DNA from: a virus
Taxonomy: Duplodnaviria > Caudoviricetes
Direction: 5' to 3' (one strand)
IMG/VR virus record: IMGVR_UViG_3300029305_003961
Location: 1 to 64,000 of that record
DNA: 64,000 nucleotides
The position numbers and the translations under genes are program-made. The notes below the pieces were generated by a model. That model was not told the DNA's origin, did no database searches, and saw only the letters and a list, made by a program, of their open reading frames with translations. Every line of letters begins with the position of its first letter. The first letter of the stretch is position 1. Below, in pieces: positions 1 through 64,000 of the stretch.

Positions 1-449
1 TAGTACTTGACAAAGATAAAAATTTTTGTAATAATAATTATAGTTTAGTTGAAGTATATACTAAACAATTTGATAAAACTACTAATAATATATGTGAATT
101 AAAGGCTATATTATATAGTTTTTTAAAATATGGAATAAATATAAATAATAAGGAATTTGCTGAAATTCCAGTTGTATATAGTGATTCCACCTATGCTATA
201 AACACCTTTGAAAATTGGATGTTCTCTTGGGCCAATAATGGATGGCGTAAGAGTGATAAAAAGATACCAGAAAATTTAGAAATTATTCAAGCCTATTATG
301 ATTGGTATCAAAAAGGTTATCGAATTGAATTGCGCAAAGTAAAAGGCCACTCAGATAATCTTTATAATAATTATGCTGACTTACTTGCTACTGGTAAAGC
401 AACTCCAGAACAAGTAAAACAAATGATTGGAGAAAATATAAATGGCTGA
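1..449 (+). CDS. rnhA: Ribonuclease HI (5' end outside the window)
   Basis: The frame is open from position 3. It shows the RNase HI motifs TTNNICELKA, YSDSTY, W..NGW....K..ENL and KVKGHS.N.YN..AD.LA. Confidence 0.9.
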   Translation, partial: VLDKDKNFCNNNYSLVEVYTKQFDKTTNNICELKAILYSFLKYGININNKEFAEIPVVYSDSTYAINTFENWMFSWANNGWRKSDKKIPENLEIIQAYYDWYQKGYRIELRKVKGHSDNLYNNYADLLATGKATPEQVKQMIGENING

Positions 450-3376
450 TAAAAAGAAATTATATAATGAAGACTCAATAGAATCGCTCAATCCGTTGGA
501 ATTTACTCGTCTAAGGCCACAAGTCTACGCAGGCGATTGCACTTATTCTACTCAACTACTGGTAGAGATTTTATCTAATGCTATTGATGAGTTCAATTTA
601 GGGCACGGAACAGAAATTAATGTTGTTTTAAATAAAGATGTAGTTATCGTAAAAGACCATGGACAAGGTTTTATTGTAAATCATACAAGAGATGATGGAA
701 AAACTATCCTAGAGGCAGCATTCTCTGTTCTCAACACTTCTGGAAAATACCGTGAAGATGGAGCATATGAAGGAACTTCATTAGGTTCTTTTGGTATTGG
801 TTCAAAAATTACAACTTTTCTATCTCACTATTTGGATGTTATAACATTTAGAGATAAACAGTTTGAAAGAATATATTTTAAAGAAGGCGTATTTGATAAA
901 CGAGAAGTCGGAAAATTAAATGATAATACAACTGGCACCATTGTTAAATGGCAACCAAGTGAAGAATTCTTTACCCATACCGAAGTTGAAATCGGTAAAG
1001 TAAAAGAACTTCTAAAGACTATTGTTTGCTTATGCCCTGGTCTAACTATTAAATTGGACAATAATGGAGAAAAAACTGAATACTTTTCTCAAAATGGACT
1101 GCGTGATTATGTAGACCAAAAGGTAAAAGATAAAGAAATCATTGATAATAGATTTTACTCCAAATTCAAAAATGGTAAAGAATCTATTGATTTTATTCTT
1201 ACTTATACCACCTCTTATAATGGAACAATTATTCCCTATGTAAATACTGGTCTTACTGAAAAAGGTTCTCATATTACTCTTATCAAGGCGCTTATTACTA
1301 AAGAGTTTAATAAGTTTTTTAGAGACCAAAAGTGGTTGAAAGAGAAAGATGAGAACTTGACTGGTGAAGATATCGCAGAAGGTCAATATATTGTCTTTAA
1401 TATTACGGCTTCTGGCGTTGCTTATGACGCACAAGTTAAGAGTAATATCACTAAGATTGATATGAAGCCTTTTATTAATGGACTAACAGAAGATTTGCGG
1501 ACTTGGCTAGAAACTAATAAGAAAGAAATTAAAGATATTGCGGATAAGGCTATTAATGCTCGGAAGGCTCGTGAGGCCGCTAAGAAAGCAAAGGATACTG
1601 TTCGTAATAAGGCTGAAAAGAAACAAAAGGCTTTGAAGTTTGATAGTAAACTTGCCGATTGTTATAGTAAACAGCGTAGCAAATGTGAAATCTATATCAC
1701 AGAGGGCGATTCGGCGTCCGGCAACCTAAAGACCGCAAGAAATAACGAATTCCAAGCAGTTATGCCTGTTCGTGGTAAGATTTTAAATACTCAAAAGGCT
1801 ACTCTTGATAAGATTCAGAAAAACGCAGAAATTATGACACTTATTGATGCTTTTGGTCTTACAATTGACCCAAAGAGTATGAAAATTACTTATAACAAAG
1901 AAGATTTACGTTATGGTAAGATTATTATTATGAGCGATGCTGATGTAGACGGCGCGCATATCAAAAATCTTTTCTATACATTCATTTGGAATTTCTGCCC
2001 GCAACTAATTCTTGATGGATATGTTTATGCGGGTGTGCCTCCTCTCTATAAAATTACTATTGGTAAGCAATACAAATATCTGAAAAACGATGAGGCTTTA
2101 GAACAATTCCGTAAAGAAAATGCCGGTCGTAAATATATTGTTAACCGCTTGAAAGGGTAAGAGATAGTCTGGCCCTTAGCTACTTTTCCTCTAATCAGAG
2201 GGGTCACAGAAATGCGGCTAACGAGGTAGTCTTCAAAATTATTTGGACATTTTAGGATAATCTGAAATGTATAAAATTCATATAATATTGAAGATAATCT
2301 CGTGGGAAAAAACTACGAATTATCTTACTGAAACAAAAAAGGTAGGATATAAACAATGATTGGTATCTATAAAATTACAAATAAAATAAATGGTCATTCT
2401 TATATTGGCTTGTCAACAAAGGTTGAAGAACGTTGGAAATACCATTTATCTCCGTATAATCAAGAACGAGAAAGTCATAAAACATTGTATTAGGCTTTTG
2501 CTAAATATGGAGTTGAAAATTTTGATTTTGAAATCCTTGAAGAGTGTAAAATAGAAGAACTTGGAGCAAAAGAAAAATATTATATTGATAAATTTGATAC
2601 ATATCATAATGGCTATAATATGACAGCAGGTGGTGAAGATAATGTGGGTCAAAGCCATCCTGGTCATAAATTAAATTAGCGTGATGTTGAAGATATACGC
2701 ATTAGGTATAATAATCTTGAACGAAGAAAAGAAGTTTATAATCTTTATAAGGACCGAATTGGCGAAAGCGGATTTGGGAAAATATGGAAGGGTGAATCTT
2801 GGTAGCATATTATGCCAGAAGTTTACACTCCTGAAAACAAAGCGTTCCATTTACATAATACTGCTAATAAAGGCAGTTCAAATGGACGCACTCGATTAAC
2901 AGAAGAAGAAGTTCGAGTTATTCGCCTTAGGCGTAAAAATGGAGAACAATTAAAAGATGTTTATGAAGATTATAAAGATAAATTAACAAAGGGTTCATTT
3001 TCAAATATTTGGTGTTATTAGAATTGGAAAGATATCGTAGTTTAAACCTGTATCGACTATCCGCTTTGTCGCGGAGTAGAATTGTTATTGATACACAATT
3101 CGAAAAGGTAGCATCCTATGACGGCAATTAAAGCGTTAGCCCGAGGATAAGAAATAGTCAGTACCATCAGTAATGATGGAGAAATATGTAGGCGAAATGG
3201 ATGTTGAAGAAACAGAAGAAACTCTTACTGACCCAGAGAACAGAATTATCAAACAAATTACAGTTGAGGATATAAAGAAAGCAGACCAGTTATTTGAAGA
3301 TTTAATGGGTGCTGGAATTGCCCCTCGTAAAAAATATATTCAAGACCACAGTGCGGAGGCAACAGGAAATGTATAA
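442..3376 (+). CDS. gyrB: DNA gyrase/type IIA topoisomerase subunit B, spliced: join(442..2158,3189..3376), about 634 aa
   Basis: GHKL motifs (EILSNAIDE, DHGQG) and TOPRIM motifs (EGDSA, PVRGKILN, DADVDG) are present. The conserved R.KGLGEM motif is restored by joining AAA GGG T to TA GGC GAA ATG. Confidence 0.93.
2245..2290 (+). promoter_or_regulatory. Candidate phage-specific promoter motif (copy 1, inside the intron)
   Basis: GGAC-N9-TAA-N16-TTCATATAATATTG. Confidence 0.55.
2356..3045 (+). CDS. Intron-encoded GIY-YIG homing endonuclease, 229 aa, 4 in-frame TAG (2491, 2677, 2803, 3019)
   Basis: Reads MIGIYKITNKINGHSYIG...YGVENFDFEILEEC...GYNMTAGG, followed by two repeated helical DNA-binding-like units. 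It ends in TAA only if TAG is read through. Confidence 0.88.
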
Positions 3377-5705
3377 TAGTGATTTAATAAATGAATTAGG
3401 TGTAAACTTTATCGAATATGCGGTTGCCGTCAATACAGATCGCGCAATACCAGACGCTAAATCCGGTCTGAAACCAGTAGCAAAAAGAATATTATATGGT
3501 GCTTATGATGCCGGTTATGCCTACTCAAAACCTCACGTAAAATGTGCTAATATTGTCGGTAATGTAATGGCCGATTGGCATCCACACGGCGATAGTTCTA
3601 TTTATGGAGCGCTTGTGCGTTTGGCTCAACCTTGGGTAATGCGCTATCCACTGATTGATTTTCACGGTTCTATGGGTAATAGAGATGGAGACGGACCTGC
3701 GGCTTATCGTTATACTGAAGCAAGATTGGCAAAACTTTCAGAAGAAGGTATGCTTGCTGGTATAAAAAAGAAGAATGTTGATTTTATTCCCAACTATTCT
3801 GAAACAAAAGATGAACCAATTACTTTACCTGCTATTTTCCCCAATTTGCTATGTAATCCAAATACTGGTATTGGTGTAGCAATGGCGTGTAATTGGTTGC
3901 CACATAATCTTGGTGAAGTGGCTCAGGCTATCTATGATTATATGGACGGTAAAGAGCCTATGATTCCTGGCCCTGACTTTCCGACCGGTGGTGAAATCAT
4001 CAATAAAAATGATTTACCTACAATTATTAAGTCCGGAAAAGGTAGTGTAAAACTTCGTGGTAGATATACTTTTGAAGATAATAATATTGTCTTTTATGAA
4101 ATTCCTTATGGAGTTGCCACAGAAGCACTTATGACTGAAATCGGCGCTGCTTGCGATGAAGAACGCATTAGGGGTATTGAAAATATTCGCAATGAAAGTA
4201 ATCGCAAAGGTTTTAGATTGGTTATTGAATGTGAAAAAGGTGCTAATCTAAATAATATTATCAATCTTTTATTTAAAGAAACAAGTTTACAAACTTCAAT
4301 TTCTTATAATCAAGTTGCCTTAATTGATAAAGTTCCTACAGAACTTGGATTAAAAGATTGTATCAAAATCTATATTAATCATAATATTGAGTGTATTACA
4401 AGAGAGGCTCAGTTTGATAAAAAGAAATCTCAAGATAGACTAGAAATTGTCGAAGGATTATTGCGAGCCTTAGAGGATATTGATAATATAATTGCTCTTA
4501 TTAAAGCGTCAGCAAGTTCTTCTGCCGCAAAAGATGCCCTTATAACCAAATATAATTTTACGGACGCTCAGGCAAAGGCTATCGTAGATATGAAATTGGG
4601 AAAATTGGCCGGTCTTGAAAAAATGGAAATAATGGAAGAAAAATCTGATTTATTAGAAGAGATTAAAGTTTTAGATATTATTATTTCTGACCCTAAGCCC
4701 GAATTGCGCAGAAGACTAGAAAATATTGTTCATCGATATGGCGATGCTCGTCGTACCGAATTGACACAAATTACAATTGCCAAAGAAGAAAAAGAAATCG
4801 AATTTGTTGAACCTGAAAAATGTGTTGTAGTTCTAACCGAAGCAGGAACTATCAAGCGTATTCCCACTACTTCTTTCCGCGCCCAGAAGCGCAATGGTAA
4901 GGGTATAAAAACACAAGAAGATATTACAAGTATGGTGCTTCGCACCAATACAATTGATAGTCTTATGATTTTCAGTAATAAGGGACAAATGTATAGGTTG
5001 CTTGTAAATGATATTCCTGCCGGTACGAATACAACAAAGGGTGTTCCTGTAAAAGCGCTTGTTTCAATGGAGCAGGATGAGGAACCCGCAACTATGTATT
5101 CTATCTACAGAGATACAGACGCTAAATATGTTTTATTTATCACTAAAAATGGTATCGTGAAAAAGACTACCTTAGAGGAGTACACAAATACCAAGAAGAA
5201 GAATGGCATCGGTGCCATTTCTTTAAAAGAAGGAGATAGTCTTGCGGCTGTGTCTTTGGTAAAAGACGAACCTCTTATTATTATTACTAAGCAAGGCTAT
5301 ATGATAAAGTTTAATTCAATGGAAATTGGCGCCACTTCTCGTATGACTACTGGCGTCAAGGGCATTACTCTTGGCGAAGGTGATGAGGTAGTAGCGGCTT
5401 TACCAGTTCGAAATGCTGATGATGCTGTGGCGGTGTTCACTGAAACAGGACTGGCAAAGAAGATGCTTCCAAAAGAGGTAATGTCTCAGAAACGAGGCGG
5501 CAAGGGACTAATTTGCTATAAGCCGACTGATTCTTCTGGCCATATTGTGGGTGCCGCAATGGTAAGTGATGAGGATAACATTCTTATCGTTGGCAATAAG
5601 AGTTCAATCTGTGTGGCCGCCACTGATATTCCTGCTCTTGGAAGAACCGGAATCGGCAATCAAATGATTAAGAGTGGTAGAGTTTCTACCATTAGTAAAG
5701 TATAA
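3369..5705 (+). CDS. gyrA: DNA gyrase subunit A, 778 aa
   Basis: Motifs RAIPDAKSGLKPV, HPHGDSSIY and catalytic AAYRYTE. C-terminal pinwheel repeats carry GyrA-box-like QKRNGKG and QKRGGKG. The ATG at 3369 overlaps the gyrB stop. Confidence 0.93.
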   Translation: MYNSDLINELGVNFIEYAVAVNTDRAIPDAKSGLKPVAKRILYGAYDAGYAYSKPHVKCANIVGNVMADWHPHGDSSIYGALVRLAQPWVMRYPLIDFHGSMGNRDGDGPAAYRYTEARLAKLSEEGMLAGIKKKNVDFIPNYSETKDEPITLPAIFPNLLCNPNTGIGVAMACNWLPHNLGEVAQAIYDYMDGKEPMIPGPDFPTGGEIINKNDLPTIIKSGKGSVKLRGRYTFEDNNIVFYEIPYGVATEALMTEIGAACDEERIRGIENIRNESNRKGFRLVIECEKGANLNNIINLLFKETSLQTSISYNQVALIDKVPTELGLKDCIKIYINHNIECITREAQFDKKKSQDRLEIVEGLLRALEDIDNIIALIKASASSSAAKDALITKYNFTDAQAKAIVDMKLGKLAGLEKMEIMEEKSDLLEEIKVLDIIISDPKPELRRRLENIVHRYGDARRTELTQITIAKEEKEIEFVEPEKCVVVLTEAGTIKRIPTTSFRAQKRNGKGIKTQEDITSMVLRTNTIDSLMIFSNKGQMYRLLVNDIPAGTNTTKGVPVKALVSMEQDEEPATMYSIYRDTDAKYVLFITKNGIVKKTTLEEYTNTKKKNGIGAISLKEGDSLAAVSLVKDEPLIIITKQGYMIKFNSMEIGATSRMTTGVKGITLGEGDEVVAALPVRNADDAVAVFTETGLAKKMLPKEVMSQKRGGKGLICYKPTDSSGHIVGAAMVSDEDNILIVGNKSSICVAATDIPALGRTGIGNQMIKSGRVSTISKV

Positions 5706-5949: not shown

Positions 5950-5974
5950 GGAGACTTTATAGTCTCCTTATTTT
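5946..5974 (+). terminator. Intrinsic terminator
   Basis: ATAAGGAGACT-TTAT-AGTCTCCTTAT followed by TTT. Confidence 0.75.
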
Positions 5975-6001
5975 GCTATTCCAAAAAAATTTTGATATAA
6001 T
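5973..6001 (+). promoter_or_regulatory. sigmaA-type promoter
   Basis: TTGCTA-17 nt-TATAAT with extended TG. Confidence 0.75.
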
Positions 6002-6034: not shown

Positions 6035-6080
6035 GGGCGAAACAGATAAAATCATATTATGCTTTCTTGATAATATATAA
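6035..6080 (+). promoter_or_regulatory. Candidate phage-specific promoter motif (copy 2)
   Basis: GGGC-N9-AAA-N16-TTGATAATATATAA. Confidence 0.55.
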
Positions 6081-6096
6081 AGGAGGTAAGCATAAA

Positions 6097-7023
6097 ATGA
6101 TTTTTAGAAAAGATTTAACTAATCAAACATATGGTTTTTGGACTGTCTTAGAGTTTGACCAAGAGCGAAGTGATAAAGAAAAAAGAACTTATTGGAAATG
6201 TTAGTGCGAATGTGGAACTATCGCAAGTGTTTTAGGTTATAATCTAACTTCAGGTACATCGAGGTCTTGTGGTTGTCAATCACATAATTTAAGAAAAAAT
6301 GACCTTATTGGTCAAGTTTTTGGTTATTTAACAGTGATTGAAGATACTAAAAAATTAACCAAAGGACGCAATGTTATTTGGAAGTGCAAATGCAAATGTG
6401 GCAATGAAATTGAAGTTCCTGCGGGATATCTAATAAAAGGGTCTACATCTTCTTGTGGCTGTTATAAAAAAGAAACATTAATGAAAGATTTAACCGGGAA
6501 ACGTTTTGGTAAGTTAGTAGTGCTAGAAGAAACTGACCAACGATTAAGAGATTATATTGTTTGGAAGTGCAAATGTGATTGCGGTAATATCTGTTATATT
6601 ACAAGTTGGTGTTTAAATAACGGCCATACAAATTCATGCGGTTGTTTAAAATCTAAGGGCGAAGCTAAAATAAAAAATATATTAGACTCATATAATATTC
6701 CCTACAATACTGAACATACATTTGCTGATTTAATTTCCATTAATGGAGCTCATTTAAGATTTGATTTTGCTATTTTAAACTCTGATAATACAATTAGTCA
6801 TTTAATTGAATATAATGGATAGCAACATTATGAATGCAGTGAGCAATGGTGGAATACACAAGATAATTTTTCTACTTTACAGTAGAATGATTTATTAAAA
6901 CAATAGTATTGTAAAAAAAATAATATCGATTTAGTTATTATTCCATATGATGAATATGATAATATAACGATTGAAAAATTATTAGGAGATAAATATGAAA
7001 GAAAAAATGCGACAATTGATTGA
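6097..7023 (+). CDS. Free-standing homing-endonuclease-like protein: three Cys-rich repeats plus a C-terminal PD-(D/E)xK/Vsr-like nuclease, 308 aa, 4 TAG (6202, 6820, 6883, 6904)
   Basis: SD AAGGAGG. Three copies of DL.G..FG.L.V...WKC.C.CG...SCGC, then RFDFAI..IEYNG*QHY..ND..K..YC...NI.L..IPY. The ORF overlaps the ligA start. Confidence 0.82.
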
Positions 7024-8938
7024 ACAATTGAATCATTATACACATTTTTATGATATGGGCAACCCTTTAATTTCAGACGCAGAATGGGATAAATTATATT
7101 TTGATTTGCAAGAATTGGAGAAGAAGAGCGGTTATACTTTTCCTGACTCTCCTACTCAAAATATTTCTTATGATGTAGTTTCTGAATTGAAAAAAATCAC
7201 GCACAATCATCCAATGCTTTCTTTGCAAAAAACGAAGAGTTTAGATGAACTAAATGAGTTTTGTGGTAATCGAACTGCTTTCCTATCTTTAAAACTTGAT
7301 GGCTTAACTTGCTCACTTTATTATGCGGATGGTCGCCTACAACGAGCAGAAACTCGTGGAAATGGTTTAATAGGAGAAGATATTACCCATAATGCTATGG
7401 TAATTCCTTCGATTCCTAAGAAAATTGAGTATAAGGAAGAATTAGTGGTTGATGGCGAAATTATTTGTATGGACTATGATTTTATACCATTTTCTGAAGA
7501 ATATGCCAATTCACGTAATTTTGCGTCTGGCAGTATTAGATTATTGGATTCTAAAGAATGTGAAAAGCGTCATCTTACCTTTGTGGGTTGGGAAATGGTA
7601 AAGGGTTATGAAAATGTAAAGAGCGCTATTGATAAATTACAAGGCTTAAGAAAACTTAATTTTCACGTTGTTCCCTTTGAAATTATTTACAAGGAAACAA
7701 TTACAGAAGCCTTGATTGAGAGTTTAAAAAAAGTAGCAAAAATTGGCGGATATCCAATCGATGGACTTGTACTCAAGTATGATGATATTAATTACGCAAA
7801 ATCTTTAGGAGCCACCGCACACCATAGACGAGATGGATTGGCTTATAAATTCTTTGATGAATCAGTCGAAACAACTCTCCGAGATATTGAATGGTCTATG
7901 GGCCGCACTGGTAAATTAACTCCTGTCGCCATTTTTGACGAAATTGAACTTGAGGGTTCGAAAGTAAGTCGCGCCAACCTTCATAATATTAGTATTATGA
8001 ATGAAACCTTAAATTGTCCTGGATGGTCTGGTCAAAAAATTGGTGTTGTTAAACGCAATATGATTATTCCACAAATAGAATGGGCGGAAGAAAATGAAGA
8101 TATACCTCATATATCTCATAAGTTTTTTCTTTTACCCAAAACTTGTCCGATTTGTGGGGAAAAGACCTCTATTAAAAAGGATATAGATACATTTAATCTA
8201 TATTGTTCCAATCCGTTGTGCGAAGGAAAGTTGATTAATAAATTAGACCATTTTTGCGGTAAAAAAGGTCTAGATATCAAGGGGCTTTCTGTTGCCACAC
8301 TTGAAAAACTTATCGACTGGGGTTGGGTAAATTGTTTTGCTGATATTTTTGAATTGAGGCATTATTATACCGAATGGATTGAAAAACCTGGTTTCGGCAA
8401 AGCATCAGTAGAAAAATTACTTGACGCCATCGAATACGCTCAGTATAATTCTACTCACGAGTCTTTTATTTCTGCTATTGGTATTCCTTTAATTGGAAGA
8501 GCAATGGTAAAAGAATTGATGAAAAATGGTATTACTACATATTATGCCTTGTATAATTTAGTTCAACAAGGACAAGATTTTTCACAATTTAATGGTTTTG
8601 GATATGAAAAAAGTGAATCATTATTAAATTTCGATTACACCGAGGCTAATAAGGCTTATGCTTTGATGAGTCTCATTTCTTCCGAACCAGAAGAGAAAAA
8701 GGAGCAAAGTCTTGAGGGCAAATCTATTGTAATTACTGGAACTCTAAAAAACTTTAAAAATAGGGCTGCTCTTCAAGCAGTAATCGAGGCTGCCGGTGGT
8801 AAAGTCGTTAGTTCTGTTAGTAAAAATACTTCTTATTTAGTTAATAATGATATAGAATCTACTAGCGCTAAGAATCAAGCGGCGAAGAAACTAGGTATTC
8901 CGATTATTACTGAAGAAGATTTTTTGAAAATAATTTGA
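6995..8938 (+). CDS. ligA: NAD-dependent DNA ligase
   Basis: KLDG adenylation motif, TRGNG..GEDIT, OB fold, Zn finger (CPIC...C....C), HhH repeats and C-terminal BRCT domain. Confidence 0.96.
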   Translation: MKEKMRQLIEQLNHYTHFYDMGNPLISDAEWDKLYFDLQELEKKSGYTFPDSPTQNISYDVVSELKKITHNHPMLSLQKTKSLDELNEFCGNRTAFLSLKLDGLTCSLYYADGRLQRAETRGNGLIGEDITHNAMVIPSIPKKIEYKEELVVDGEIICMDYDFIPFSEEYANSRNFASGSIRLLDSKECEKRHLTFVGWEMVKGYENVKSAIDKLQGLRKLNFHVVPFEIIYKETITEALIESLKKVAKIGGYPIDGLVLKYDDINYAKSLGATAHHRRDGLAYKFFDESVETTLRDIEWSMGRTGKLTPVAIFDEIELEGSKVSRANLHNISIMNETLNCPGWSGQKIGVVKRNMIIPQIEWAEENEDIPHISHKFFLLPKTCPICGEKTSIKKDIDTFNLYCSNPLCEGKLINKLDHFCGKKGLDIKGLSVATLEKLIDWGWVNCFADIFELRHYYTEWIEKPGFGKASVEKLLDAIEYAQYNSTHESFISAIGIPLIGRAMVKELMKNGITTYYALYNLVQQGQDFSQFNGFGYEKSESLLNFDYTEANKAYALMSLISSEPEEKKEQSLEGKSIVITGTLKNFKNRAALQAVIEAAGGKVVSSVSKNTSYLVNNDIESTSAKNQAAKKLGIPIITEEDFLKII

Positions 8939-8963
8939 TTTTTTGAAAAATTTTCGATATAAT
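8935..8963 (+). promoter_or_regulatory. sigmaA-type promoter
   Basis: TTGATT-17 nt-TATAAT; the -35 element overlaps the ligA TGA stop. Confidence 0.7.
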
Positions 8964-8994
8964 ATATTCGTAAAGTTAAGGATGAAAATTTTTT

Positions 8995-54232: not shown

Positions 54233-54754
54233 AGTCATATCTACCATGCTCTTTAATAAAGTTAAGGCTTGAGGGTCATTAATTTGATTCATAAGTTCAG
54301 TAACATCGAAGTTTAAATTATCTCTATTATTAGAAATGGCTTTCAAAATGCCAAGTACAGAATTGTTATAAGTAGTAATTTCTTTAGCTAAAGCCATAAT
54401 ATTACTCCAAATATATTCACGTTCGGCTTCAGGAATTGCGTCGGCTACTGCGGCCCAAATATCATTTAAACGAATGGCGTCATATAGCTTAGGAGTATCT
54501 TCGAGTTGTTTTTCAGTAAAGCTAATATTCGTATAGGCTCGAATCATTTCAATAACATAATAGGCTTCAAGCTTTACGATATTAAAGAAGCCTTCTTCTC
54601 CATTGCCAGACTGCTCAATAACAGAGGTAATTAAATTTAATTTCTCTTCCAAAGGAAGATATTGTTCAACCAAAATCTTTTGGTCCTCAACAACAATCTC
54701 TACTGCTGGTAGAGATTTGATTTTATTAAATTTTGAAAAAGCAATTTTTGCCAT
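54218..54754 (-). CDS. Hypothetical protein, 178 aa, TAG-free (occupies a tail-chaperone-like position)
   Basis: ATG 54754 after SD AAGGAG; motifs I.VEQYLP..EK and YTNISFTEKQ.ED..KLYD. Confidence 0.75.
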   Translation of the reverse strand: MAKIAFSKFNKIKSLPAVEIVVEDQKILVEQYLPLEEKLNLITSVIEQSGNGEEGFFNIVKLEAYYVIEMIRAYTNISFTEKQLEDTPKLYDAIRLNDIWAAVADAIPEAEREYIWSNIMALAKEITTYNNSVLGILKAISNNRDNLNFDVTELMNQINDPQALTLLKSMVDMTGLTR

Positions 54755-54797
54755 AGTAATTTTCTCCTTTTTCTCTCGCTTTTGCGATTTTTTATTT

Positions 54798-54826
54798 ATT
54801 ATATCAAAAATTTTTGAGATTGTCAA
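54798..54826 (-). promoter_or_regulatory. sigmaA-type promoter (consensus) inside the virion cluster
   Basis: The - strand reads TTGACA-17 nt-TATAAT with extended TG. Confidence 0.85.
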
Positions 54827-56169
54827 TTTTCATTAATAGCAATTCGATAATCCTTTGGTTTTGTAACCGATACAGAGCCAATGGGTGCAAAGTATTTGCT
54901 TCTAGCAAATAAATTAGTATAATAAGTATAAGAATCCATAATACCCTTTGAGGTCATCATATAATAATTTCCTTTAATAATTTTATTATCTAGAAATTTT
55001 CCTAAACAATAACTAAATAAAGCCTTATAATCGGGATGCGTAGACTTTACATTGAATCGATGGGTAACATTTTCTTTCTAATACCCCTCTATACCTTGTG
55101 ATAGTATATATAAATTCCTTAAGGCTTTAGCCTAAGCATAATCTGCATTAATTACATCATAAAAAGATACTTTACCCATTGTAATATATCCTCCTCGATG
55201 ATATTTAGACTATAATCCTATTGCTGATTTCATTATCTACTACCATTCACTGTCTGTAAAGCTGATTGAACTATTATTAGATTGAGCGTTATTTAAATAT
55301 TCATGTAAATTAACTTTTTCCCCATTGCTTAATTCTATTACTAAATTTTTTTCAAAAAATAAAGCGTCTTGTGAAGCCTATTGACCACCAACTAAAATCT
55401 AACCAGTTCCAACAAAAGAAATATTTTGAGGGATTTTTACCTTTTCTTTAATAAACTTAATGCCTTCATGTTCTAACAAAGTAATACCTTTAATCTACAT
55501 GGAGAGATAGCCTAATTTACTAATGAAGTTAACCTATTCCCCTTGTTTATTCTAAAATAGGGATTTATCTAACAATATTGATGGAGTTGAGTCAACTTGA
55601 TTGCCAATGATTTGAATTAAAGTGTCTAGCTCTTGTAAATATTTATCTGTTACATTTTTCAACTAATTATTTTTAATACTACTATATATAGATAAAAATT
55701 TTTTATATGCTGTTTGTAGCTAGGAATTTGCAGAAAGCATATTTTCGACACTTGTTGAAATTGATTGAATCTATTTTAATTTTCCGGCCGACTTAAGAAC
55801 TTCATCGATACCAGCTTCTAATGCTTTGATTCCATTTTTCACTAGATTCTAAACAGCTAAATCCGCTTCCAAAAAAGCTTGTTGATTATTCATCTTAGTA
55901 AGCTATAATAGAAGTTTACTTTGCTAAAAAGTTTTTTGAATACTTAAAAAATGTTTCTTCTGTTCCAAAGCAATATCTGAAGCAGTGGGAATATTTAAAT
56001 TATTCATAAAATTAGCTTTAATACCAGTGGCATAAACAAATTGATTATTATCAGTGTTATATCCCCACATTGGCTTACCGTCATAAAAATGCTATGTTCT
56101 TCTATTATATAAAGTATTCTTATTCGATTTACCACGATTTCTAAAGTTAATATAATCACTTAATTTCAT
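54823..56169 (-). CDS. Hypothetical protein, about 448 aa, TAG-rich
   Basis: SD GAAAGGAG, ATG 56169 and an in-frame TGA at 54823. It fills a 1.35-kb gap in the ORF track. Confidence 0.65.
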
Positions 56170-56236: not shown

Positions 56237-56240
56237 AAAT

Positions 56241-56609
56241 TTAATGTATAACGGGAATAGTTATTTCATCGGTAAATAAAATTGATTGACCATTTTTCTT
56301 GGCATAGGCCTGAGCCTCTAAAGAAATTTCATTAACTTCATCTTTTACATCTAAAGAAATGAGAGAGATATATATCTCAGGCTAGAGTGGATCAAAATGA
56401 AGAAGAGGATCATCAACATATAAAATTTCATTTTCAGCTCCCATGTAAGACACAACAGCCTATAGATTCTCCCATTCTTCAATTGTATCATCTAACATTA
56501 AACTTCCGATATTACTTACTACATTAAAATAATAAGTATCATTAACATTTATTCCCTAACTTATATCACTTACGGCAACTAAATGAATTGATTTTAGTTG
56601 CCCTGAGTA
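56241..56609 (-). CDS. Probable -1 frameshift C-terminal extension of the tail tube protein (about 120 aa, 3 TAG)
   Basis: The -1 frame is open across the tail tube stop and runs to TAA 56241. It has no start codon or SD at its 5' end. Candidate slippery heptamer A AAC CCT at 56615-56609. Confidence 0.55.
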
Positions 56610-57580
56610 GGGTTTACAGGACCGATAACGCCATTTTCGTCTTCCTTACGAAGAGTATTGGTAGCATCTCTGTCCATCTCGTCTTGAGCGGCTCCGCCAA
56701 TAATCTGAATGGAAGCCAATACCTTTTCCTTGCGGTCAAAGCGAGTATAATCGGGGAAGGCGTCCATAGTAAAAGTAAAGGAAGAGGGATCTCCAGAACC
56801 AGCCATAGTAAATGTAAAATTAGATTGTACACGAGCATTAGGAATAATGAACTCGGCAGGCATATCTAACTGAGTTGCCTGGTCGCGGAATAAAGTAGAA
56901 GCCTCAACATAGAAAGCTCCACCGAACTTATCAGGAGTAATATTAATCTGCATTGCTCCAGAGTTCTTCTCAACATAATAATCTACTAAAATAGTATAAC
57001 CATTTAAATGAGCAGGCTTATCAATTCCGTTGGGCTTGCTAATAGTTAATACTTTATCGGCTACACTAATTTCACCGGCACCACCCTCGTTGGTATCAGT
57101 GGAGAATGGCTCACAATATAAATTATTTTGAGCGTCATAAATTAGTACGTAAACATCAGCGCCAGATTTCTTTTCAGGGGTTACAGGAGCTTCAGTCATG
57201 GTGACTTCAATAGTGCCATCTTCACTCCAAGTAACAAATTCAGTATCAGCAGCATCAATACGCTCAGTGCTATGAACATAAATAGTCTCTTCGGCACCAT
57301 CAATAATTCCAGCACCAGTCAGAATAGATAGACCCTCAGGAGAAATTAAAGCATCCTCCATAGTGAAAGTAACTGTACGCTCACCATCCCAAGACATTAA
57401 ACGAGCATTACCACGTCCACCTTGAGCGTAAACAGTAGTTGCTGCGCCTTCTAAAGTAGAAGTTTTCAGAGTGTCAAAATAAATAACGGGCTCACCCTTA
57501 TAGAAAATTCTTTTACCAACTTTCATAGGAGCCTTGGCTCTGAAAACAACATCGCAACATTCGCGAACACCAAATTTCAT
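56594..57580 (-). CDS. Major tail tube protein, 328 aa, TAG-free
   Basis: Motifs MKFGVRE, LKTSTLEGAATTVYAQGGRGN.RL..WDGE, EDAL and FTFTMA..GDPS.FTFTMDAFP. Lies between the neck genes and the tape measure gene. Confidence 0.8.
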   Translation of the reverse strand: MKFGVRECCDVVFRAKAPMKVGKRIFYKGEPVIYFDTLKTSTLEGAATTVYAQGGRGNARLMSWDGERTVTFTMEDALISPEGLSILTGAGIIDGAEETIYVHSTERIDAADTEFVTWSEDGTIEVTMTEAPVTPEKKSGADVYVLIYDAQNNLYCEPFSTDTNEGGAGEISVADKVLTISKPNGIDKPAHLNGYTILVDYYVEKNSGAMQINITPDKFGGAFYVEASTLFRDQATQLDMPAEFIIPNARVQSNFTFTMAGSGDPSSFTFTMDAFPDYTRFDRKEKVLASIQIIGGAAQDEMDRDATNTLRKEDENGVIGPVNPTQGN

Positions 57581-57608: not shown

Positions 57609-58331
57609 TTAATGAATATTCTTCATCCAACTATCAACAGGTTTATCAGGTTTAGCACCCGCTAAGCGAGATTTTAAATCGATATCCCAATTGATATATA
57701 GAGAATATCTTTCAACCAAATCATACAGTTGATACATAGTTAAGTTAATGCAATCTTGTAAAGACATAGAACCTAATCCAACAGTAAGGGTTGAAATATA
57801 CTGCGCAAAAGCGCTTCCTTCGTTATCAGCGGCCTTTTGTGCGGCTACTTTCTAACGCCCTTTCATGAGTTTATCTGCTATTTCTTTAGCCTTTTTATCA
57901 CCGGGATTAAATACCTGCTAATCAGTTTTATTTAAGCAAAATATCTAGCCAATAATCTCTTGAAATTTTTCAAAATTGTTTTCATCTATTATGGCGGTTT
58001 GTCCTTCACAATTCAAGGAAATTGCCCGAGGCGTAAAAAAAGTTGTACACTACGGAAATAATAAAGCCAACGTTGATAAAACACTTTGTTTTTTATCAGC
58101 CGTAGATTTATCATTCATAACCGTCATAAATATTTGAAAATTCGATGTAGTTGATAGAAGATTTTCGTCCTATATCACCATTTTTTTCTATATACTTAAA
58201 CACTAAATTCCTACTAAAAATTCTTTCTCCCCTAAATAAGAAATTTCTTTAAGCGTTGGCTAATGAAGCGTAATTTGTAATTCTGGAATAGGAATGTCTA
58301 CGCCAGTCATTAAGGCTAGTCTAATGTCCAT
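57609..58331 (-). CDS. Tail-module protein, 240 aa, multiple TAG
   Basis: Reads MDIRLALMTGVDIPIPE...LH*PTLKEI...AKEIADKLMKGR*KVA...LTMYQLYDL.ERY...LAGAK...WMKNIH. Absent from the ORF track. Confidence 0.75.
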
Positions 58332-58924
58332 TCTTTTTCACCATTATTAAACATTTCATTAAATTCTTTAATAAAGGCTTCATTATCCTCGGGATTAAGC
58401 ATAAACTTTTTATCATCTTCTCCGTTAATAACACTATACATTAAAGAAATGCCAGCAAATTCATCATTTAAAATAATTTGATTGGCTCCTAAAAATTGTG
58501 TTTCACCAATTCCTGCCAAATGTTTTTTATCAATCATATAATCAATTTCAGCCGCAATTTTATAGGGTCTTAATTGGAAGTCTTTTAAATGCCATTGGTC
58601 AAAATGACAAATAATATCAAAAGAAATAATATGGTCTCTAAACTCAGGATTGGTTGCGTTAGGAGTAAAATTATCGAAACTAATAATTACATAGTTCTCA
58701 ACAGTTTTATCAATAACCAATTTGGGAACAATACGAATATTTTTACCAAATAACTCATAAGTCTAATCGGCAGTAAGTTTTGCTTTATCCAAAGCGTTCG
58801 GAGTAGTGTAATATAATAATTTTTTTAATCTGTCATTTTTGAGCATTAAATTAGTAATAATACTTAAATCTTTTTCAATACTCAAAAAACTAGATTTAGG
58901 AAATTGATAATTTTCAATTTTCAT
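58310..58924 (-). CDS. Neck/tail-completion protein, 204 aa, 2 TAG
   Basis: Motifs FLSIEKD, RLKKLLYY, FDNFTPNATNPEFRD, FDIICH..W and RPYKIA.EID. Confidence 0.65.
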
Positions 58925-58941
58925 AACTGTTCTCCTTTATC

Positions 58942-59988
58942 TCAAAAAAGTGATTTAACAGTAATCTCCTTGGAAGTTTTTCCAAAAGATAAAGTAAATG
59001 TATCACTATAACTCGCAGTCCATATTAAATCAATAATATTATCGCTAATCTGTGCTTCTAGTGGCAAAGAAGCGTCATAACTCCATTCGCCATCTTCTGC
59101 ACCGTCATAACGATATCTATAAGTTTTTCGTGGCCGCATTGTATTCTCACCAACGATAATATAATCAACCTCGCTAGGAAGTTCAATCATAACTACGTCT
59201 TTAACAATACCTTGTTCTACATCATCAACCTATTCGTTTGAATAATATTCGTGAGCAGTAATTTCTAAAATACCAGGCATACTTATAGTATCAGTTGCTT
59301 CCACACGCCAGCAAATTTTATTAGTTTCCGCATCGGCACCGCGAATATAAAATTTAGCATATCTCTAAAAACGCTTTATAGTTTCATCATTTTTAGGCAT
59401 TAAAATATTTAAAGTGTGATTAGGAATATCCATATTATAATTATCTTTAGTAATAGAGTTCATCGCAGTTTCTACTGGACCGCGAATCGCAAACCAGGTA
59501 TGGTGAATTTGTCCATATTCATCTTCCCAGTTTACCCAATAATTACATTTGCGTATATCTCCTTTAAAATATGCTAACTCTGTTAAATCTTGTAAATATA
59601 TTAACCAATAGGAGGTGTCAACAGTGCCATCTTGTTTTTTACGATGCCACTAAATTACATCTCCGGGTTTATAATTATATTCATATCCAACAGACAGAAT
59701 CTTATCATCATAATCTTGTTTTACGATATTGGCATTAATCAGCGCCCTCTGTCGTATTCTAGGACAATTTACAGGAGAAATTTCTGCGGCTTGATATGAA
59801 TTAAACACGGCTCGATCAAGCGTTTTTCGCTTGGCCTGAATCATTCTTTCTTGCTAACGATAGCCGCCTTCAGCGCGCAATAAAGTTGCTTGATTATCTA
59901 CTCCTTCAGTCGCGCCAATATTTTGGTAGGGAGCCTTTTCATAAACACCCAAACGTGCTTCCATTAATTTTTTATTATGAGTAATCAC
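58942..59988 (-). CDS. Head closure/neck protein, 348 aa, several TAG
   Basis: GTG start after AGGAG. Motifs RALIN....KQDYDDKILS, WLIYLQDLTELAYFKG.IRKC and WRVEATDTIS.PGILE. Confidence 0.7.
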
Positions 59989-60283
59989 GACCGAACTCCT
60001 ATAATAAACTAATGGCTTCAAAAACAGTTTTACGATACAGGGTAAAAGGAATATCTTCCATAGCCTTTAATCCCTCTAACTTACTTAATAAAGAAATTAG
60101 AACTGAATTAAGAATTAATACTTCTTGTAATCCGGTGATTTCAAGAATTACTGTATCTAACTGTTTTTGCCAATCTTCTTCATGCTCTTTCATTGGAATT
60201 AATTTCCAAAGTTGATTAGTTAATCTCATAACATTTTTTTGCATACCCTCTACCTCTGCAAATCCATATTTAGTTAAGAGCAC
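59975..60283 (-). CDS. Hypothetical neck-region protein, 102 aa, 1 TAG
   Basis: Motifs RLTNQLWKLIPM.E and YRKTVFE.ISLL*E. Read-through ends at a TAA overlapping the next start. Confidence 0.65.
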
Positions 60284-60764
60284 TATTATCCCTCAATACT
60301 GACCAGTTAGATTCATACTTTCCGCCATCATCAAATCTGCGGCGCTTATATAAACGCTACATATGATGGGATTGGCGTTGATTTTCAGCCAGTAAAGTTA
60401 ATAGTTTTCCCAAGTGATTTGCTTGAGAGGTAAATTTAAAATCAGAACTACTAAATTTCATTCTGGTATTTTCGATAGAGGTAATTTGTCTTTGAGTCCA
60501 ACTAATCATCATTAAAATAGCGAGGATATTTATTTCCTCGCTACTTAATTCTTCGGCAAAAGAAGAAGTATCTTCGAGCACGTTCTCTGCTTCTTCAATG
60601 CTATAATCCATAAGATTTTTTCGTGGAAATTCAAAGCCAGGAATAGCATCAATAAGCAAATTGCGCAAATCACGCATAGTGTCTTCTGGAGTTAACTCCA
60701 TATACATATCGTCAGTAATTTTTCCAAGAAAGCGATTATAAACTTGAGTAAATGGTGTGCCCAT
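60270..60764 (-). CDS. Head-tail adaptor/connector, 164 aa, 1 TAG
   Basis: Motifs TPF..VY.RFL.KITDD, L..EEINILA..M...W and DFKFTSQANHL.KL...HHM*RLYKRR. Confidence 0.7.
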
Positions 60765-60780: not shown

Positions 60781-61344
60781 TTATTCTTCAATAATATTAT
60801 ATTTGCTTTCAGTTCTACGAACTTGAGTTTCTGCGTTTGTCTTCTGAACACGACGAGTGGTAGTAGAGGCTTCTACTGGAACTTCGTCCTCATCTGGCGC
60901 ATTATTCTCAATAGCGGCTGTTACATTAAAACCAGTCATCTCAAGGATTGCCTGTCTCTTAAGCATATCGTAAATGGGCAGTTCGACTGCTTTATCCTTA
61001 ATAATCTGAATAACTCCCTTAGGAGCAAAATCCAAAGCATCCTTTAATTCATCAAGAGAGCCTTGCTGTAGCATCTTAACTACATCTTCTTCACTCATAA
61101 AATATTCAGGTTCAGTGTGAATGTTTAAGTTTTTCGTGGCCTGAACTTCTTGAATTTGTAGCATATTGGTCATTAAATTACGACCGCCGGGTCTATAACT
61201 TAACCAAACTAACTCCTCATAGGGAACCTGTTTAGTTTCATTAGCATTAAATTCTCTGCGAATGCCATGCTCAGGAATACGGTATACAACACGTCCCGCA
61301 CTTCTATTTTTAACATTCACAAGTTTCTTCATATCAAATTCCAT
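60781..61344 (-). CDS. Conserved head-region protein, 187 aa, TAG-free
   Basis: SD AAAAGGAG. Motifs V.VKNRS.G.V.Y.IP and GSLDE.KDALDFAP.GV. Lies directly after the capsid gene. Confidence 0.7.
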   Translation of the reverse strand: MEFDMKKLVNVKNRSAGRVVYRIPEHGIRREFNANETKQVPYEELVWLSYRPGGRNLMTNMLQIQEVQATKNLNIHTEPEYFMSEEDVVKMLQQGSLDELKDALDFAPKGVIQIIKDKAVELPIYDMLKRQAILEMTGFNVTAAIENNAPDEDEVPVEASTTTRRVQKTNAETQVRRTESKYNIIEE

Positions 61345-61363
61345 AATAAATCTCCTTTTTCTC

Positions 61364-61406
61364 AAAAAAATAATAGGGGAGAGGGGAAATCCCCCGTCTC
61401 CCCTTA
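61364..61406 (-). terminator. Intrinsic terminator after the major capsid gene
   Basis: AGGGGAGA-GGGG-AAAT-CCCC-CG-TCTCCCCT stem with a T tract on the - strand. Confidence 0.75.
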
Positions 61407-61422: not shown

Positions 61423-62463
61423 TTAAGCATTAGCCTCAATGTCTAAGCTGGAGTCGAAATAGTGGCAAACGCTGTTGTTCAGCATAGCAACTACGCCAAC
61501 CTTCTTATAAACCTGGATATCGCGGCTCCAATCGTCGTTCTCATGCTCTTTCATTAGAGTCTCGCCTTCCATTGCTACGTAGATAGGAGTACCGTTAGCA
61601 CCAGTAGCAATAACCCAGCAGTGAGCAGGATTTACAACTTTTTGGCTGTTGGTTTCATCAACGAAACTCTGCTCTAGGATAACTACGCGGGTGCCCTTGT
61701 AGTTACCTAACCAACCATTGTTCCAAATCTTCTCTTTCATTCCCTCGGTTAAATAACCTTCAGCAGGAATCATACGAACAGCAAATTCACGAGTGCAATA
61801 TACAACAGGAGTGCCGTAAGCAGCAGCAATCTGAATTAAACGGTCCATTTCATCGGGATCCCAACCATCGATAGCAACACGGTTAGCGGCAGGCAGCTGG
61901 TTAACAGCACCTTCCATAGCCTTTACTACTTCTTCCTGGATTGCCTCATCAATGCCTTCCAGAACGATGTTTAGGACTTCAGCCATATCAATACGGCCAT
62001 CTAGGAATTCTTCAAAACCGATTTGAGCAGCTCCGCCCAGTGCGCTAGTGGGTACCTGGAAGCTTTCAGTTTTCTTGCCTAGCTTGAAAACTTCATAGCG
62101 GCCAGCCAGACCAACGCGAGTGATGAACTGCTTAGCACGACGATTATTGGTACGATTACGCTTGAATTCAGGCTTGTCGCCCTGAGCGAATACCTTTACA
62201 GTAGCCAGACCAGCATAGCGGTCAGCAACACTCTTAGGAAGAACGTCATCTAAAACTTCTTCCATAATAGAGAAAATTAAGTTCTTGTTCTCACGATATA
62301 GGGAGTGAGTAGAAGCTAAAGCGTTCAACTCGTCACGCAGAGTTTCATTAACAGCGCTGTAAGTCAGGCTAGCGCCATTGAAACTATAAGCGGTAGGAGC
62401 AGAAGGATTAGCAGTCATAGCAATTTTACCTAATTGCACTAAATCTTGTTTATTTAAAGCCAT
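61423..62463 (-). CDS. Major capsid protein, 346 aa, TAG-free
   Basis: Size, position after scaffold and cement genes, and high-expression codon bias. Sequence features include IGFEEFLDGR and GWLGNYKGT.V..L.Q. Confidence 0.85.
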   Translation of the reverse strand: MALNKQDLVQLGKIAMTANPSAPTAYSFNGASLTYSAVNETLRDELNALASTHSLYRENKNLIFSIMEEVLDDVLPKSVADRYAGLATVKVFAQGDKPEFKRNRTNNRRAKQFITRVGLAGRYEVFKLGKKTESFQVPTSALGGAAQIGFEEFLDGRIDMAEVLNIVLEGIDEAIQEEVVKAMEGAVNQLPAANRVAIDGWDPDEMDRLIQIAAAYGTPVVYCTREFAVRMIPAEGYLTEGMKEKIWNNGWLGNYKGTRVVILEQSFVDETNSQKVVNPAHCWVIATGANGTPIYVAMEGETLMKEHENDDWSRDIQVYKKVGVVAMLNNSVCHYFDSSLDIEANA

Positions 62464-62481: not shown

Positions 62482-63171
62482 TTAAGCGATACGCATAATC
62501 TTTACGCCCTTCTGATAGTCGGGCATAGTATAAACTTTAACGACCTGCCACTGCATCTTGGCATCTTCGCCAACCTCTAGAATACCATTAGCACCAACCT
62601 TTAATAGGTCACCAACTTCTAGAGACTCAGCATTAACGCAGTTAGTGGTGAAAATATCACCAACCATAGTCTTAAATACACGAGGAACCATAGTGGTGTC
62701 TTCGGGCATTAAAGCAACTTCATTCTGAGAATAAATGCGGAAGGGGTCAGCAACAGCGTCTAAAGAATAAGGGTCAGCAGGAGCAACGATGTCGCGATAG
62801 TCGCGAGCATATAGATAATTGCCTTCCTCATCCTTTAATTCACTTAATTCACCCTTGCTGGGACTATAAACGCGAGCCTTGTAATTGCCCTTCACCATAG
62901 CAAATTCGCAATCATCCTGGCCGTCACGATATAGTTTGATTTCATTGAAAACTAGCATCCATTCGCCCTTGCCTTCAAAATTGACAAGGCCTTTTTCATA
63001 GTCGTATTTAACGAACTGACCATTTTCTAAAACGTCAATGTCAGCAGCCGCAGGTAATTGAGCATAAATCTGGCCATTGCGTTGAGCAGAAAGATGGTTA
63101 GGCTCAACCTGAGCATAGCCATAATCAACATAGGTGGCTTGGCTCAAGCCTTCTAAAAATGTTTTAGCCAT
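62482..63171 (-). CDS. Capsid cement/decoration protein, 229 aa, TAG-free
   Basis: Motifs GYAQVEPNHLSAQRNGQIYAQLPA, LENGQF.KYD, PR......GDIFTTN and TMPD.Q.GVK. Lies immediately upstream of the capsid gene. Confidence 0.7.
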   Translation of the reverse strand: MAKTFLEGLSQATYVDYGYAQVEPNHLSAQRNGQIYAQLPAAADIDVLENGQFVKYDYEKGLVNFEGKGEWMLVFNEIKLYRDGQDDCEFAMVKGNYKARVYSPSKGELSELKDEEGNYLYARDYRDIVAPADPYSLDAVADPFRIYSQNEVALMPEDTTMVPRVFKTMVGDIFTTNCVNAESLEVGDLLKVGANGILEVGEDAKMQWQVVKVYTMPDYQKGVKIMRIA

Positions 63172-63195
63172 TTTCTATATCCTCCTTAAAAATTA

Positions 63196-64000
63196 TTACA
63201 TAGTTTTCTGCTTGTCAAGCACAGCTTTAATCCAAGCAGGCATAGATTCATCTCCAGCGGTTTGATCTAAATTATAAGTGACCGTACTAGCAGGAGTTTC
63301 CTCTTCTTCTGAAGCAAAACTAATTTTATTGCGGAACGCAATAACAGAAAGTTTTGATTCAATATCATCAAGAGAATAAGTATCAATGTTATCTAAAACG
63401 TCTTTCTTGTCTTCAGGAGATAACATATAGAAGGTTTCGTTAATCATAACCTCTTTTTCTTTTCTCTCAATCGCCATTTTAAAAGCAGTTAATTCATTAA
63501 TCTGCATTTCTAAATTTGCCTTATCGGCTTCCCAAGTGGTCTTAGCGGCCTCTAAGGTAGCGTTTTCGGCCTACAAACTTTCATAGTTTGCTTGTAAAGC
63601 AGAATAAGTCTGGGAAAGTTCCATATATTCTGGAATTTCTTCCAAAACATATTTATCTTTCTTGTCCTCATCCTCTTCTTCACATTCACATTCATCAAGT
63701 GGCTTACCACACTTAGGACAAACTTCCTTATCTTCTTCTTCCTTTTCAGGCTTTTTACTAGCGGCATATTCTGCCACATAGTTATTATAAGCCTCTAAAG
63801 AAAATTGAGGTTCAGCGGCAGGAACAAATTCCTTGCTAACTTCAATCAATTCCTCAGAAGCACTAAAGCCCTCTTCAGTAAGAGTAAAGTTCAAGCGGAA
63901 ATAATCCATAGTGGTACGATGTTGAAGAATAGCGAATTTTTGACCTTCTTCCTCATAGATGCCTTCAATACGATAGACAGTACAATATTCGCACTCCTCA
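63196..64000 (-). CDS. Prohead scaffold/protease C-terminal region (5' end outside the window), 1 TAG (63571)
   Basis: ORFs 63571..63909 and 63196..63507 are co-framed. Acidic coiled coil, CPKCGKP..ECEC, YSLDDIE.KLS and PAWI.AV. Confidence 0.72.

Follow-up and report, generated by a model that had tools for sequence, protein, structure and literature searches.

Genome Context and Gene Content

The window analysed here is the 64,000-nucleotide stretch at bases 1-64,000 of IMG/VR record IMGVR_UViG_3300029305_003961, a linear viral contig of 96,663 bp that is 59% complete according to CheckV. The subject is the uneven distribution of in-frame TAG codons among the genes of this phage, a siphophage from the phAss-1-like family in which TAG is recoded to Gln (code 15). 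The GC content of the window is about 34-35%, and the GC skew switches near 33.4 kb, in step with the transition from a plus-strand arm (1-33.4 kb) to a minus-strand arm (33.5 to about 70.8 kb). Genes were annotated by Pfam, PHROGs and atlas look-alikes, and promoters and terminators by consensus scan. Longest-ORF (open reading frame; greedy) calls past about 71 kb clash with about 20 consensus plus-strand promoters and were left out of all statistics.

The nearest named relative is phAss-1; a tblastn alignment of the major capsid protein (MCP) with OQ749652 covers 99% of the protein at 44% identity. More remote relatives are phages of about 130-170 kb that infect Enterococcus, Clostridioides, and Bacillus, and the MCP call itself is based on tblastn matches to annotated MCPs of Bacillus phages. 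Because all cultured relatives infect Bacillota, the host probably also belongs to this phylum, as does the probable host of phAss-1 (Clostridia/Bacillota; PMC10607447). Near-identical DNA occurs only in metagenomes of animal faeces, and no RNA dataset was listed as containing it. In IMG/VR, 316 relatives of the capsid protein are found, the longest of their contigs measuring about 240 kb. Of 80 capsid-linked relatives that were retrieved, 57 are TAG-recoded and 23 are not, with no intermediates; a family of this size, with recoded beside non-recoded members, is a clean natural data set. After dereplication, 12-30 recoded lineages were available per region (30 for the late arm, 23 around dnaE, and 12 around gyrA), and the counts for relatives given below refer to these sets.

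The plus-strand arm begins with gyrB, whose first exon (442-2160; Pfam DNA_gyraseB and Toprim) contains 18 CAA or CAG codons and no TAG. It ends in ...NRLKG, and the frame resumes as (L)GEMDVEE... in TAG-free exon 2 (3188-3376, limits approximate), which covers the conserved C-terminal region of GyrB. At the level of the protein, this continuity bears out the intron in gyrB; an Rfam Intron_gpI match at 2997-3180 is weak (17 bits versus a gathering score of 50). Within the intron lies a GIY-YIG homing endonuclease gene (2356-3045; Pfam GIY-YIG, phrog_7168) with four TAGs, and four are also found in an HNH-type homing endonuclease gene (6067-7023; phrog_374/559), which has a predicted sigma-A-like promoter upstream (5973-6001). 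A further nuclease gene (9825-10922), which begins about 15 nt past a strong predicted terminator (9780-9809), codes for an N-terminal transmembrane (TM) helix, a coiled coil, and a C-terminal GIY-YIG domain (Pfam and PHROG matches at residues 277-357); this TM-GIY-YIG gene contains eight TAGs. RecJ (19012-20766; Pfam DHH and RecJ_OB) has three, at codons 28, 70, and 109, and the RuvC-like resolvase (32395-32907; Pfam RuvC), whose gene overlaps the end of dut, has four.

No TAG is present in gyrA (3309-5705; Pfam DNA_topoisoIV), thyA and folA (11228-12618; Pfam), the gene of an AAA_24 (Sak4-like) ATPase (14022-15008; Pfam AAA_24), the dnaB helicase and primase genes (15766-18630; Pfam DnaB_C, phrog_47), a RecD-like SF1 helicase gene (22068-23261; Pfam AAA_30/UvrD_C_2) with a predicted sigma-A promoter upstream, the guanylate kinase gene gmk (27677-28306; Pfam), or the dUTPase gene dut (31722-32453; Pfam). 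The 1295-aa DnaE (Pol III alpha; 23490-27377; Pfam) likewise has no TAG versus 55 CAA/CAG codons, and a predicted perfect sigma-A promoter precedes its gene (23428-23456). All TAG counts of the initial annotation were reproduced, with reservations about the identity or extent of three genes. The NAD-dependent DNA ligase gene ligA (6971-8938; Pfam), described there as TAG-free, holds one TAG at codon 5 of its longest ORF, upstream of all homology and thus probably 5' of the true start. SSB, also described as TAG-free, was not recognised by Pfam or PHROGs; all candidate ORFs for it lack TAG. A single-TM protein with an LGGNG motif and unassigned function (32852-33454; phrog_4257) does carry the reported three TAGs if counted from Met50 (four from the longest start), and its designation as holin-like is tentative.

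Missing from the earlier lists was the anaerobic ribonucleotide reductase gene nrdD (28378-30666; Pfam NRDD, ATP-cone at residues 1-93). Its single, genuine TAG is codon 75 (28600-28602), within the N-terminal ATP-cone, and an in-frame start codon is found at codon 81. With standard decoding, re-initiation could in principle yield a catalytic protein without the cone. TAG also occurs in nrdD of 8 of 12 recoded relatives.

On the minus strand, the virion genes include that of the 3153-aa tape measure protein (44646-54107; phrog_4211 and others), which has 94 TAGs and a TAG fraction, TAG/(TAG+CAA+CAG) or fTAG, of 0.45. The distal tail and tail-tip genes (35419-44561) contain 7, 7, 1, and 15 TAGs (fTAG 0.08-0.33), a gene between the tape measure and tube genes (54823-56169) contains 17 (fTAG 0.50), the head-tail joining and minor virion genes (57609-60764) have 8, 2, 4, 1, and 1, and the 3' part of the gene of a 520-aa head protein, which crosses the window edge (63196-64000; phrog_3313), has three. 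As the initial annotation had stated, TAG is absent from the genes of the MCP (61423-62463), where CAG exceeds CAA, of a cement/decoration-like protein (62482-63171; the atlas lead is PF22758, Phage_cement, with 48% of the members in one cluster and 25% in another), and of the tail tube, a YomU/Tube family look-alike (56594-57580; phrog_2729; atlas score 0.98, PF27173). Two TAG-free genes were not listed there: that of the protein after the MCP (60781-61365; TAG-free in 17 of 28 relatives) and a PHROG-labelled holin (33902-34291; phrog_13712, E 2e-32).

Decoding of TAG

In the present contig, TAG encodes glutamine. If it is read as sense, the tape measure gene (94 TAGs), the portal gene (9), TerL (5), and the tail genes (7, 7, 15) open into reading frames with full-length PHROG matches. 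Orthologs from non-recoded relatives have glutamine at 52% of 190 residues aligned to TAG, compared to a background of 4.2% and to 56% at CAA/CAG sites. In the non-recoded relatives, TAG is used as stop about four times more often.

The tRNA genes found on the contig by ARAGORN and Rfam comprise only a tRNA-Lys(UUU) and, directly upstream of it, a degenerate tRNA-like sequence (contig 76420-76492; 29.7 bits) that has an irregular anticodon arm and no CUA. A complete recoded relative of 185 kb has a tRNA with a CUA anticodon inside a tRNA array. We take the acceptor features of this tRNA (U1, G2-C71, G3-C70, G73) to be Gln-like. Neither the contig nor two near-complete relatives showed a match to release factors (PF00472) or Gln/Glu-tRNA synthetases (PF00749), and in this respect they differ from phages with a Jade-type code-change module, which includes a release factor or synthetase. 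They resemble phAss-1, which encodes a suppressor tRNA(CUA) and no aminoacyl-tRNA synthetase (PMC10607447).

In several genes a TAG lies one to seven codons ahead of the TAA or TGA stop (window 58310-58924, 35419-37611, and 2356-3045; contig 66750-68492). These TAGs probably are ancestral stops that are now read through to the back-up stop.

TAG Density and Gene Function

The fTAG of 52 genes is strongly heterogeneous (chi-square 186 on 51 degrees of freedom; the maximum of 5000 simulations was 106), and it is so within the plus-strand arm (87.5 versus 29 expected) as well as the minus-strand arm (57.5 versus 21 expected). In a binomial generalized linear model the deviance falls from 246.8 (null) to 238.7 with GC alone and to 82.6 with functional class alone. 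Five classes, set post hoc, thus take out 164 of 247 deviance units and GC takes out 8, with GC given class at p = 0.77. The uneven placement of TAG by function, as first proposed from the sequence, is therefore confirmed, and its explanation by glutamine count and AT content is rejected.

Leucine codons offer a neutral yardstick, because TAG and CAG differ by the same first-position T/C change as TTG and CTG. In the TAG-rich late genes the TAG/CAG ratio is 3.7 versus a TTG/CTG ratio of 4.5, and fTAG is 0.37 versus about 0.42 expected. These genes, which had been called saturated, are at mutational equilibrium, without an excess of TAG that would point to positive selection. The nucleases of the plus-strand arm are similar (fTAG 0.27 versus 0.36 expected). 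Quite different are the 13 genes for replication and nucleotide metabolism, with only 2 TAGs among 209 Gln codons (fTAG 0.01 versus about 0.52 expected); their other codon usage is ordinary (TTG/CTG 5.4, CAA/CAG 4.1). A second depleted group consists of the MCP, cement-like, tube, and 60781-61365 genes, where none of 42 Gln codons is TAG versus a fraction of 0.23 expected given their own bias (P ~2e-5). These genes also prefer CAG over CAA, CTG over TTG, and AAG over AAA, which in high-copy virion genes is a signature of translational selection.

Within genes, TAG positions show no 5' bias. Designed early termination through 5' clustering of TAG was considered and rejected, as no such clustering is seen.

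The tape measure gene sets a bound on the efficiency of suppression. With 94 read-throughs, a per-codon efficiency of 99% would leave 39% of the chains complete and one of 95% only 0.8%; late suppression must therefore work at about 99% per codon or better. Even at about 99%, about 5% of the infection's largest protein investment would be lost if the capsid gene had five TAGs. Comparing TAG/CAG to TTG/CTG is also a simple test of "preferential" recoding in other phage groups, and gene callers for mixed codes should expect single TAG-free genes in recoded blocks and vice versa.

Conservation in Recoded Relatives

The pattern recurs in the recoded relatives, which provide a test independent of the classes defined on the present contig. 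Among the late genes, TAG is missing from the MCP gene in 27 of 30 lineages (TAG/CAG 0.01, with 3 TAG versus 240 CAG), from the tube gene in 17 of 19 (TAG/CAG 0.04), and from the cement-like gene in 19 of 24 (TAG/CAG 0.03), compared to TAG/CAG ratios of 2.5-9 in the genes next to them. Relative to these neighbours the leucine control shifts about 10-fold and TAG/CAG more than 250-fold, and for the capsid gene the TAG deficit is about 50-fold. The CAG and CTG bias of the three genes is present in recoded and non-recoded relatives alike. This comparison supports the earlier proposal that the highest-copy proteins avoid TAG because suppression is not fully efficient.

In the early arm, fTAG across the relatives rises from gyrA and gyrB (both 0) through DnaE (0.008), DnaB and primase (both 0.021), ligA (0.028), RecD-like helicase (0.05), NrdD (0.063), the Sak4-like ATPase (0.066), and RecJ (0.094) to gmk (0.27-0.43), TM-GIY-YIG (0.32-0.38), and RuvC (0.40). 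The Gln codons counted were 216 in 12 relatives for gyrA, none of them TAG, and 1125 in 23 lineages for DnaE, nine of them TAG. Measured against the leucine control, the deficit is 169-fold for DnaE, 67-fold for DnaB, about 55-fold for gyrA, 35-fold for primase, 5-fold for RecJ, and 0.6-fold for RuvC. The TAG deficit thus is a gradient and not a binary split. TAG is present in RuvC of 18 of 20 lineages, in RecJ of 13 of 21, and in TM-GIY-YIG of 5 of 5 and 6 of 8. All nine TAGs in DnaE orthologs are lineage-specific singletons at conserved Gln columns, as would be expected of mildly deleterious, short-lived mutations; in RuvC, TAG columns are common to 9-11 of 21 sequences.

Predicted Operons

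The consensus used for sigma-A promoters was TTGACA, a 17-nt spacer that usually ends in TG, and TATAAT, with at most one mismatch; 35 such promoters are predicted on the contig versus 3-7 in shuffles. Those in the plus-strand arm precede a MarR-like gene, 12688, the RecD-like gene, dnaE, 30727, and 31490, and slightly weaker ones precede the HNH endonuclease gene and the dnaB operon. Strong terminators are predicted at 5946, 9780, 15016, 32893, and 33455. According to this map, several TAG-bearing genes would be transcribed together with TAG-free genes. RecJ is on the predicted dnaB-primase transcript, with no terminator or promoter between it and the TAG-free primase gene; RuvC overlaps the end of dut, and the predicted terminator follows only past RuvC (32893-32919); the GIY-YIG endonuclease is within the predicted gyrB transcript; and the TM-GIY-YIG gene would share a unit with thyA and folA. 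If RecJ, RuvC, the endonucleases, and the TM-GIY-YIG protein appear later than the products of their operon neighbours, only their TAG codons could account for the delay. A common upstream motif other than sigma-A was rejected as a mark of TAG-bearing genes: AATATAGTGG precedes RecJ and NrdD, but at 6 matches versus 6.8 expected it shows no enrichment.

An intergenic repeat some 45 nt long overlaps terminator and promoter boundaries (window 8931-8980 and 15040-15083; contig 90335-90471, 94018-94066, and 95855-95896) and is present beside the tRNA array of the 185-kb relative, too. Outside the window, on the plus strand of contig 73000-90500, about 20 promoters come near to a perfect match of TTGACAAA, spacer, TG, TATAAT. 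This region probably is an early-gene region of many small cassettes, and longest-ORF calls on its minus strand are unreliable.

Proposed Selection on Timing and Efficiency

The per-gene TAG density probably reflects graded purifying selection with two causes, timing and efficiency. Genes translated while UAG still terminates would be purged of TAG, with their other codon usage left ordinary; this set would include the replisome, topoisomerase, ligase, and nucleotide metabolism genes as well as small early cassettes. The replication genes avoid TAG without codon optimisation, as a timing constraint predicts. In the capsid, cement-like, and tube genes, TAG would be purged within a general codon optimisation, amber decoding being the least efficient way of inserting glutamine. 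In the remaining genes TAG would drift to mutational equilibrium, where TAG/CAG approaches TTG/CTG. As a by-product, TAG-bearing genes in shared host-sigma-A operons, namely those for RecJ, RuvC, the endonucleases, and the TM-GIY-YIG nuclease, would yield no full-length protein until the phage suppressor tRNA(CUA) is active; Borges et al. have proposed such a temporal gate on translation. If so, the two forces are separable in one family, with timing acting on the replication genes and efficiency on the top-copy virion genes. The earlier claim that early genes must be readable before the code switch gains indirect support from the 2 TAGs in 209 Gln codons, the ordinary codon usage, and a depletion kept in 12-23 relatives.

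Several observations weigh against this explanation. A suppressor tRNA(CUA) was not found by ARAGORN or Rfam on the contig, which is about 59% complete; the promoters and terminators are consensus predictions only; and the functional classes were set after the data had been seen. Among the relatives, 7 of 23 recoded lineages have one or two genuine TAGs in DnaE, so that either the barrier is leaky or suppression starts early in these lineages. Moreover, gmk and the gene at contig 68492-69712 are TAG-free here and TAG-rich in relatives, and the holin-like gene shows the reverse.

A possible, on balance unlikely alternative is an adaptive lock, in which positive selection would have placed TAG in the genes for nucleases, endonucleases, and lysis as a safeguard against premature DNA cutting or lysis. 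The initial annotation had likewise described DNA-cutting and lytic genes as locked until after the switch. TAG is indeed found in the RuvC, TM-GIY-YIG, and homing endonuclease genes of nearly all recoded relatives, the shared TAG columns of RuvC would suit retention, and on the predicted transcripts that these genes share with TAG-free genes TAG is the only visible discriminator. For other clades, Borges et al. (10.1101/2021.08.26.457843) report an intron endonuclease and lysis genes that are preferentially recoded. However, the TAG density of the nucleases (0.27 here; 0.40 for RuvC in relatives) is no higher than expected under neutrality and no higher than in ordinary late genes, the 5' bias that a lock might show is missing, and RecJ is merely intermediate. 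Thus, the part of the claim that concerns nucleases stands insofar as they carry TAG beside TAG-free genes, and "permitted" describes them as well as "locked". The part that concerns lysis is not supported in this contig: the single holin labelled by PHROGs lacks TAG, and a search for endolysins gave no match to Amidase_2, Amidase_3, or GH25.

Quite improbable is the absence of any temporal switch, with suppression active throughout infection and TAG decreasing as the needed expression level or accuracy rises. The capsid, tube, and cement-like genes would fit this scenario, as would the occasional real TAGs in DnaE of relatives and the graded deficit. Yet the largest deficits are those of replication genes, which show no signal of codon optimisation, and, given a late suppression of at least about 99% per codon, it is implausible that efficiency alone would count against TAG in a low-copy polymerase.

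It is very improbable that the TAG-free genes came recently from donors with the standard code and lack TAG only for want of time. The replication genes are cell-like (dnaE, gyrAB, ligA, nrdD), and 23 of 80 relatives use the standard code. However, the same genes still contain little TAG in recoded lineages at 45-65% protein identity, where synonymous sites are saturated, and this argues for continuing selection and not for recent acquisition. Composition or chance is refuted, because the somewhat higher GC content of the TAG-free late genes (0.37-0.45 versus the window average) adds nothing once class is known and the leucine control shifts far less than TAG/CAG does.

A Putative Regulator Heading the Late Arm

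At the head of the minus-strand virion arm, outside the window, lies a gene (contig 69759-70820, minus strand) with six TAGs, whose product is labelled "sigma factor" in PHROGs; GenBank entries from Enterococcus and SPbeta-like phages bear the same label. The product has four conserved Cys residues at its C-terminus, and a perfect sigma-A promoter is predicted 35 nt upstream of the gene. TAG is present in this gene in 16 of 17 dereplicated recoded lineages, and the promoter, at zero or one mismatch, in 14 of 16 recoded relatives with enough upstream sequence. In non-recoded relatives, the homolog has the promoter and no TAG. A sigma fold was not detected by Pfam, PDB profile search, or Foldseek (E ≤ 0.001), and VIA-align gave sigma-H at a Z of 6.6 only, which is within the noise for helical proteins.

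It is rather doubtful, though conceivable, that through this gene amber suppression acts as a master timer upstream of late transcription. Should late transcription depend on this protein, its gene would be transcribed as soon as infection begins, and full-length translation would have to wait for tRNA(CUA) to build up. A single tRNA would thereby control entry into the entire late programme, placing the code switch above the transcriptional cascade, and it would also hold back RecJ, RuvC, and the endonucleases compared to the replisome genes of the same transcripts. The dut-RuvC and primase-RecJ pairs, the gyrB intron endonuclease, and the TAG-bearing regulator are compact experimental handles on such a gate.

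Relation to Published Systems

The general model is known; the quantification and the intra-operon cases are added here. A model with standard decoding early and recoding late, a suppressor tRNA as the switch, and a locked intron endonuclease have been published (Borges et al., 10.1101/2021.08.26.457843), proteomic support for the code switch was reported by Peters et al. (PMC9523058), and block-wise dual coding is treated in the Mgcod preprint (10.1101/2022.06.29.495998). Evidence that stop-codon recoding in phages regulates timing is almost wholly genomic, and the topic is active. The phages of Borges et al. resemble the present family in that TAG encodes glutamine, replication genes are TAG-free, structural genes are full of TAG, and the switch is a suppressor tRNA; in their Agate phages, an intron homing endonuclease within an early gene contains recoded stops, as in the gyrB intron here. 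The difference is that the partition in the present phage is gene by gene within operons and not just block by block, with TAG-bearing RecJ and RuvC inside predicted sigma-A replication operons. If these operon predictions are correct, RecJ and RuvC would extend the intron endonuclease argument of Borges et al. Their preference for recoding lysis genes is not seen here, and no TAG-rich class lies above the neutral expectation.

The top-copy virion genes are TAG-free within a recoded block here, whereas Borges et al. found a tail tube family to be preferentially recoded among their crAss-like phages. An MCP without TAG has been remarked upon for one amber-reassigned crAss-like phage, with efficiency invoked as the reason (preprint 10.64898/2026.08.21.746148). 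That report concerns one genome from an unrelated order and gives no statistics; the present comparison covers 30 lineages, includes the tube and cement-like genes, and separates TAG avoidance from codon bias. A jumbo-phage survey reported no preference by protein type, and no systematic report of TAG avoidance in capsid, tube, and cement genes was found in the literature. phAss-1, of the proposed Phassvirus (Babkin et al., PMC10607447), shares the DnaE-type polymerase, and its TerL and tape measure genes contain TAG, as do those of the present contig; it is only distantly related and belongs to a different genus. Which genes avoid TAG was not analysed in that paper and is analysed here.

A comparable logic of late nucleases exists in T4 without the use of codon meaning. 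In that phage, the DNA-cutting enzymes I-TevI and endonuclease VII are made late by means of late promoters and RNA structure.

Additional Features

Inside the tail module lies a TAG-free gene (54218-54826, minus strand; phrog_30570), also not listed in the initial annotation, with a predicted terminator and, at 54826-54798, a predicted perfect sigma-A promoter of its own. The gene resembles an early-type cassette set between the 17-TAG gene and the tape measure gene, and its orthologs in relatives are mostly TAG-bearing. In six relatives, dnaE matches span 4.35-5.06 kb versus 3.88 kb in the present contig; the insertions of 0.5-1.2 kb probably are inteins or introns. After the TAG-free tube gene, a short TAG-bearing ORF (56241-56650, minus strand) is present. 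If it is a -1 frameshift extension of the tube protein, the abundant form would be TAG-free and the rare extended form would need suppression.

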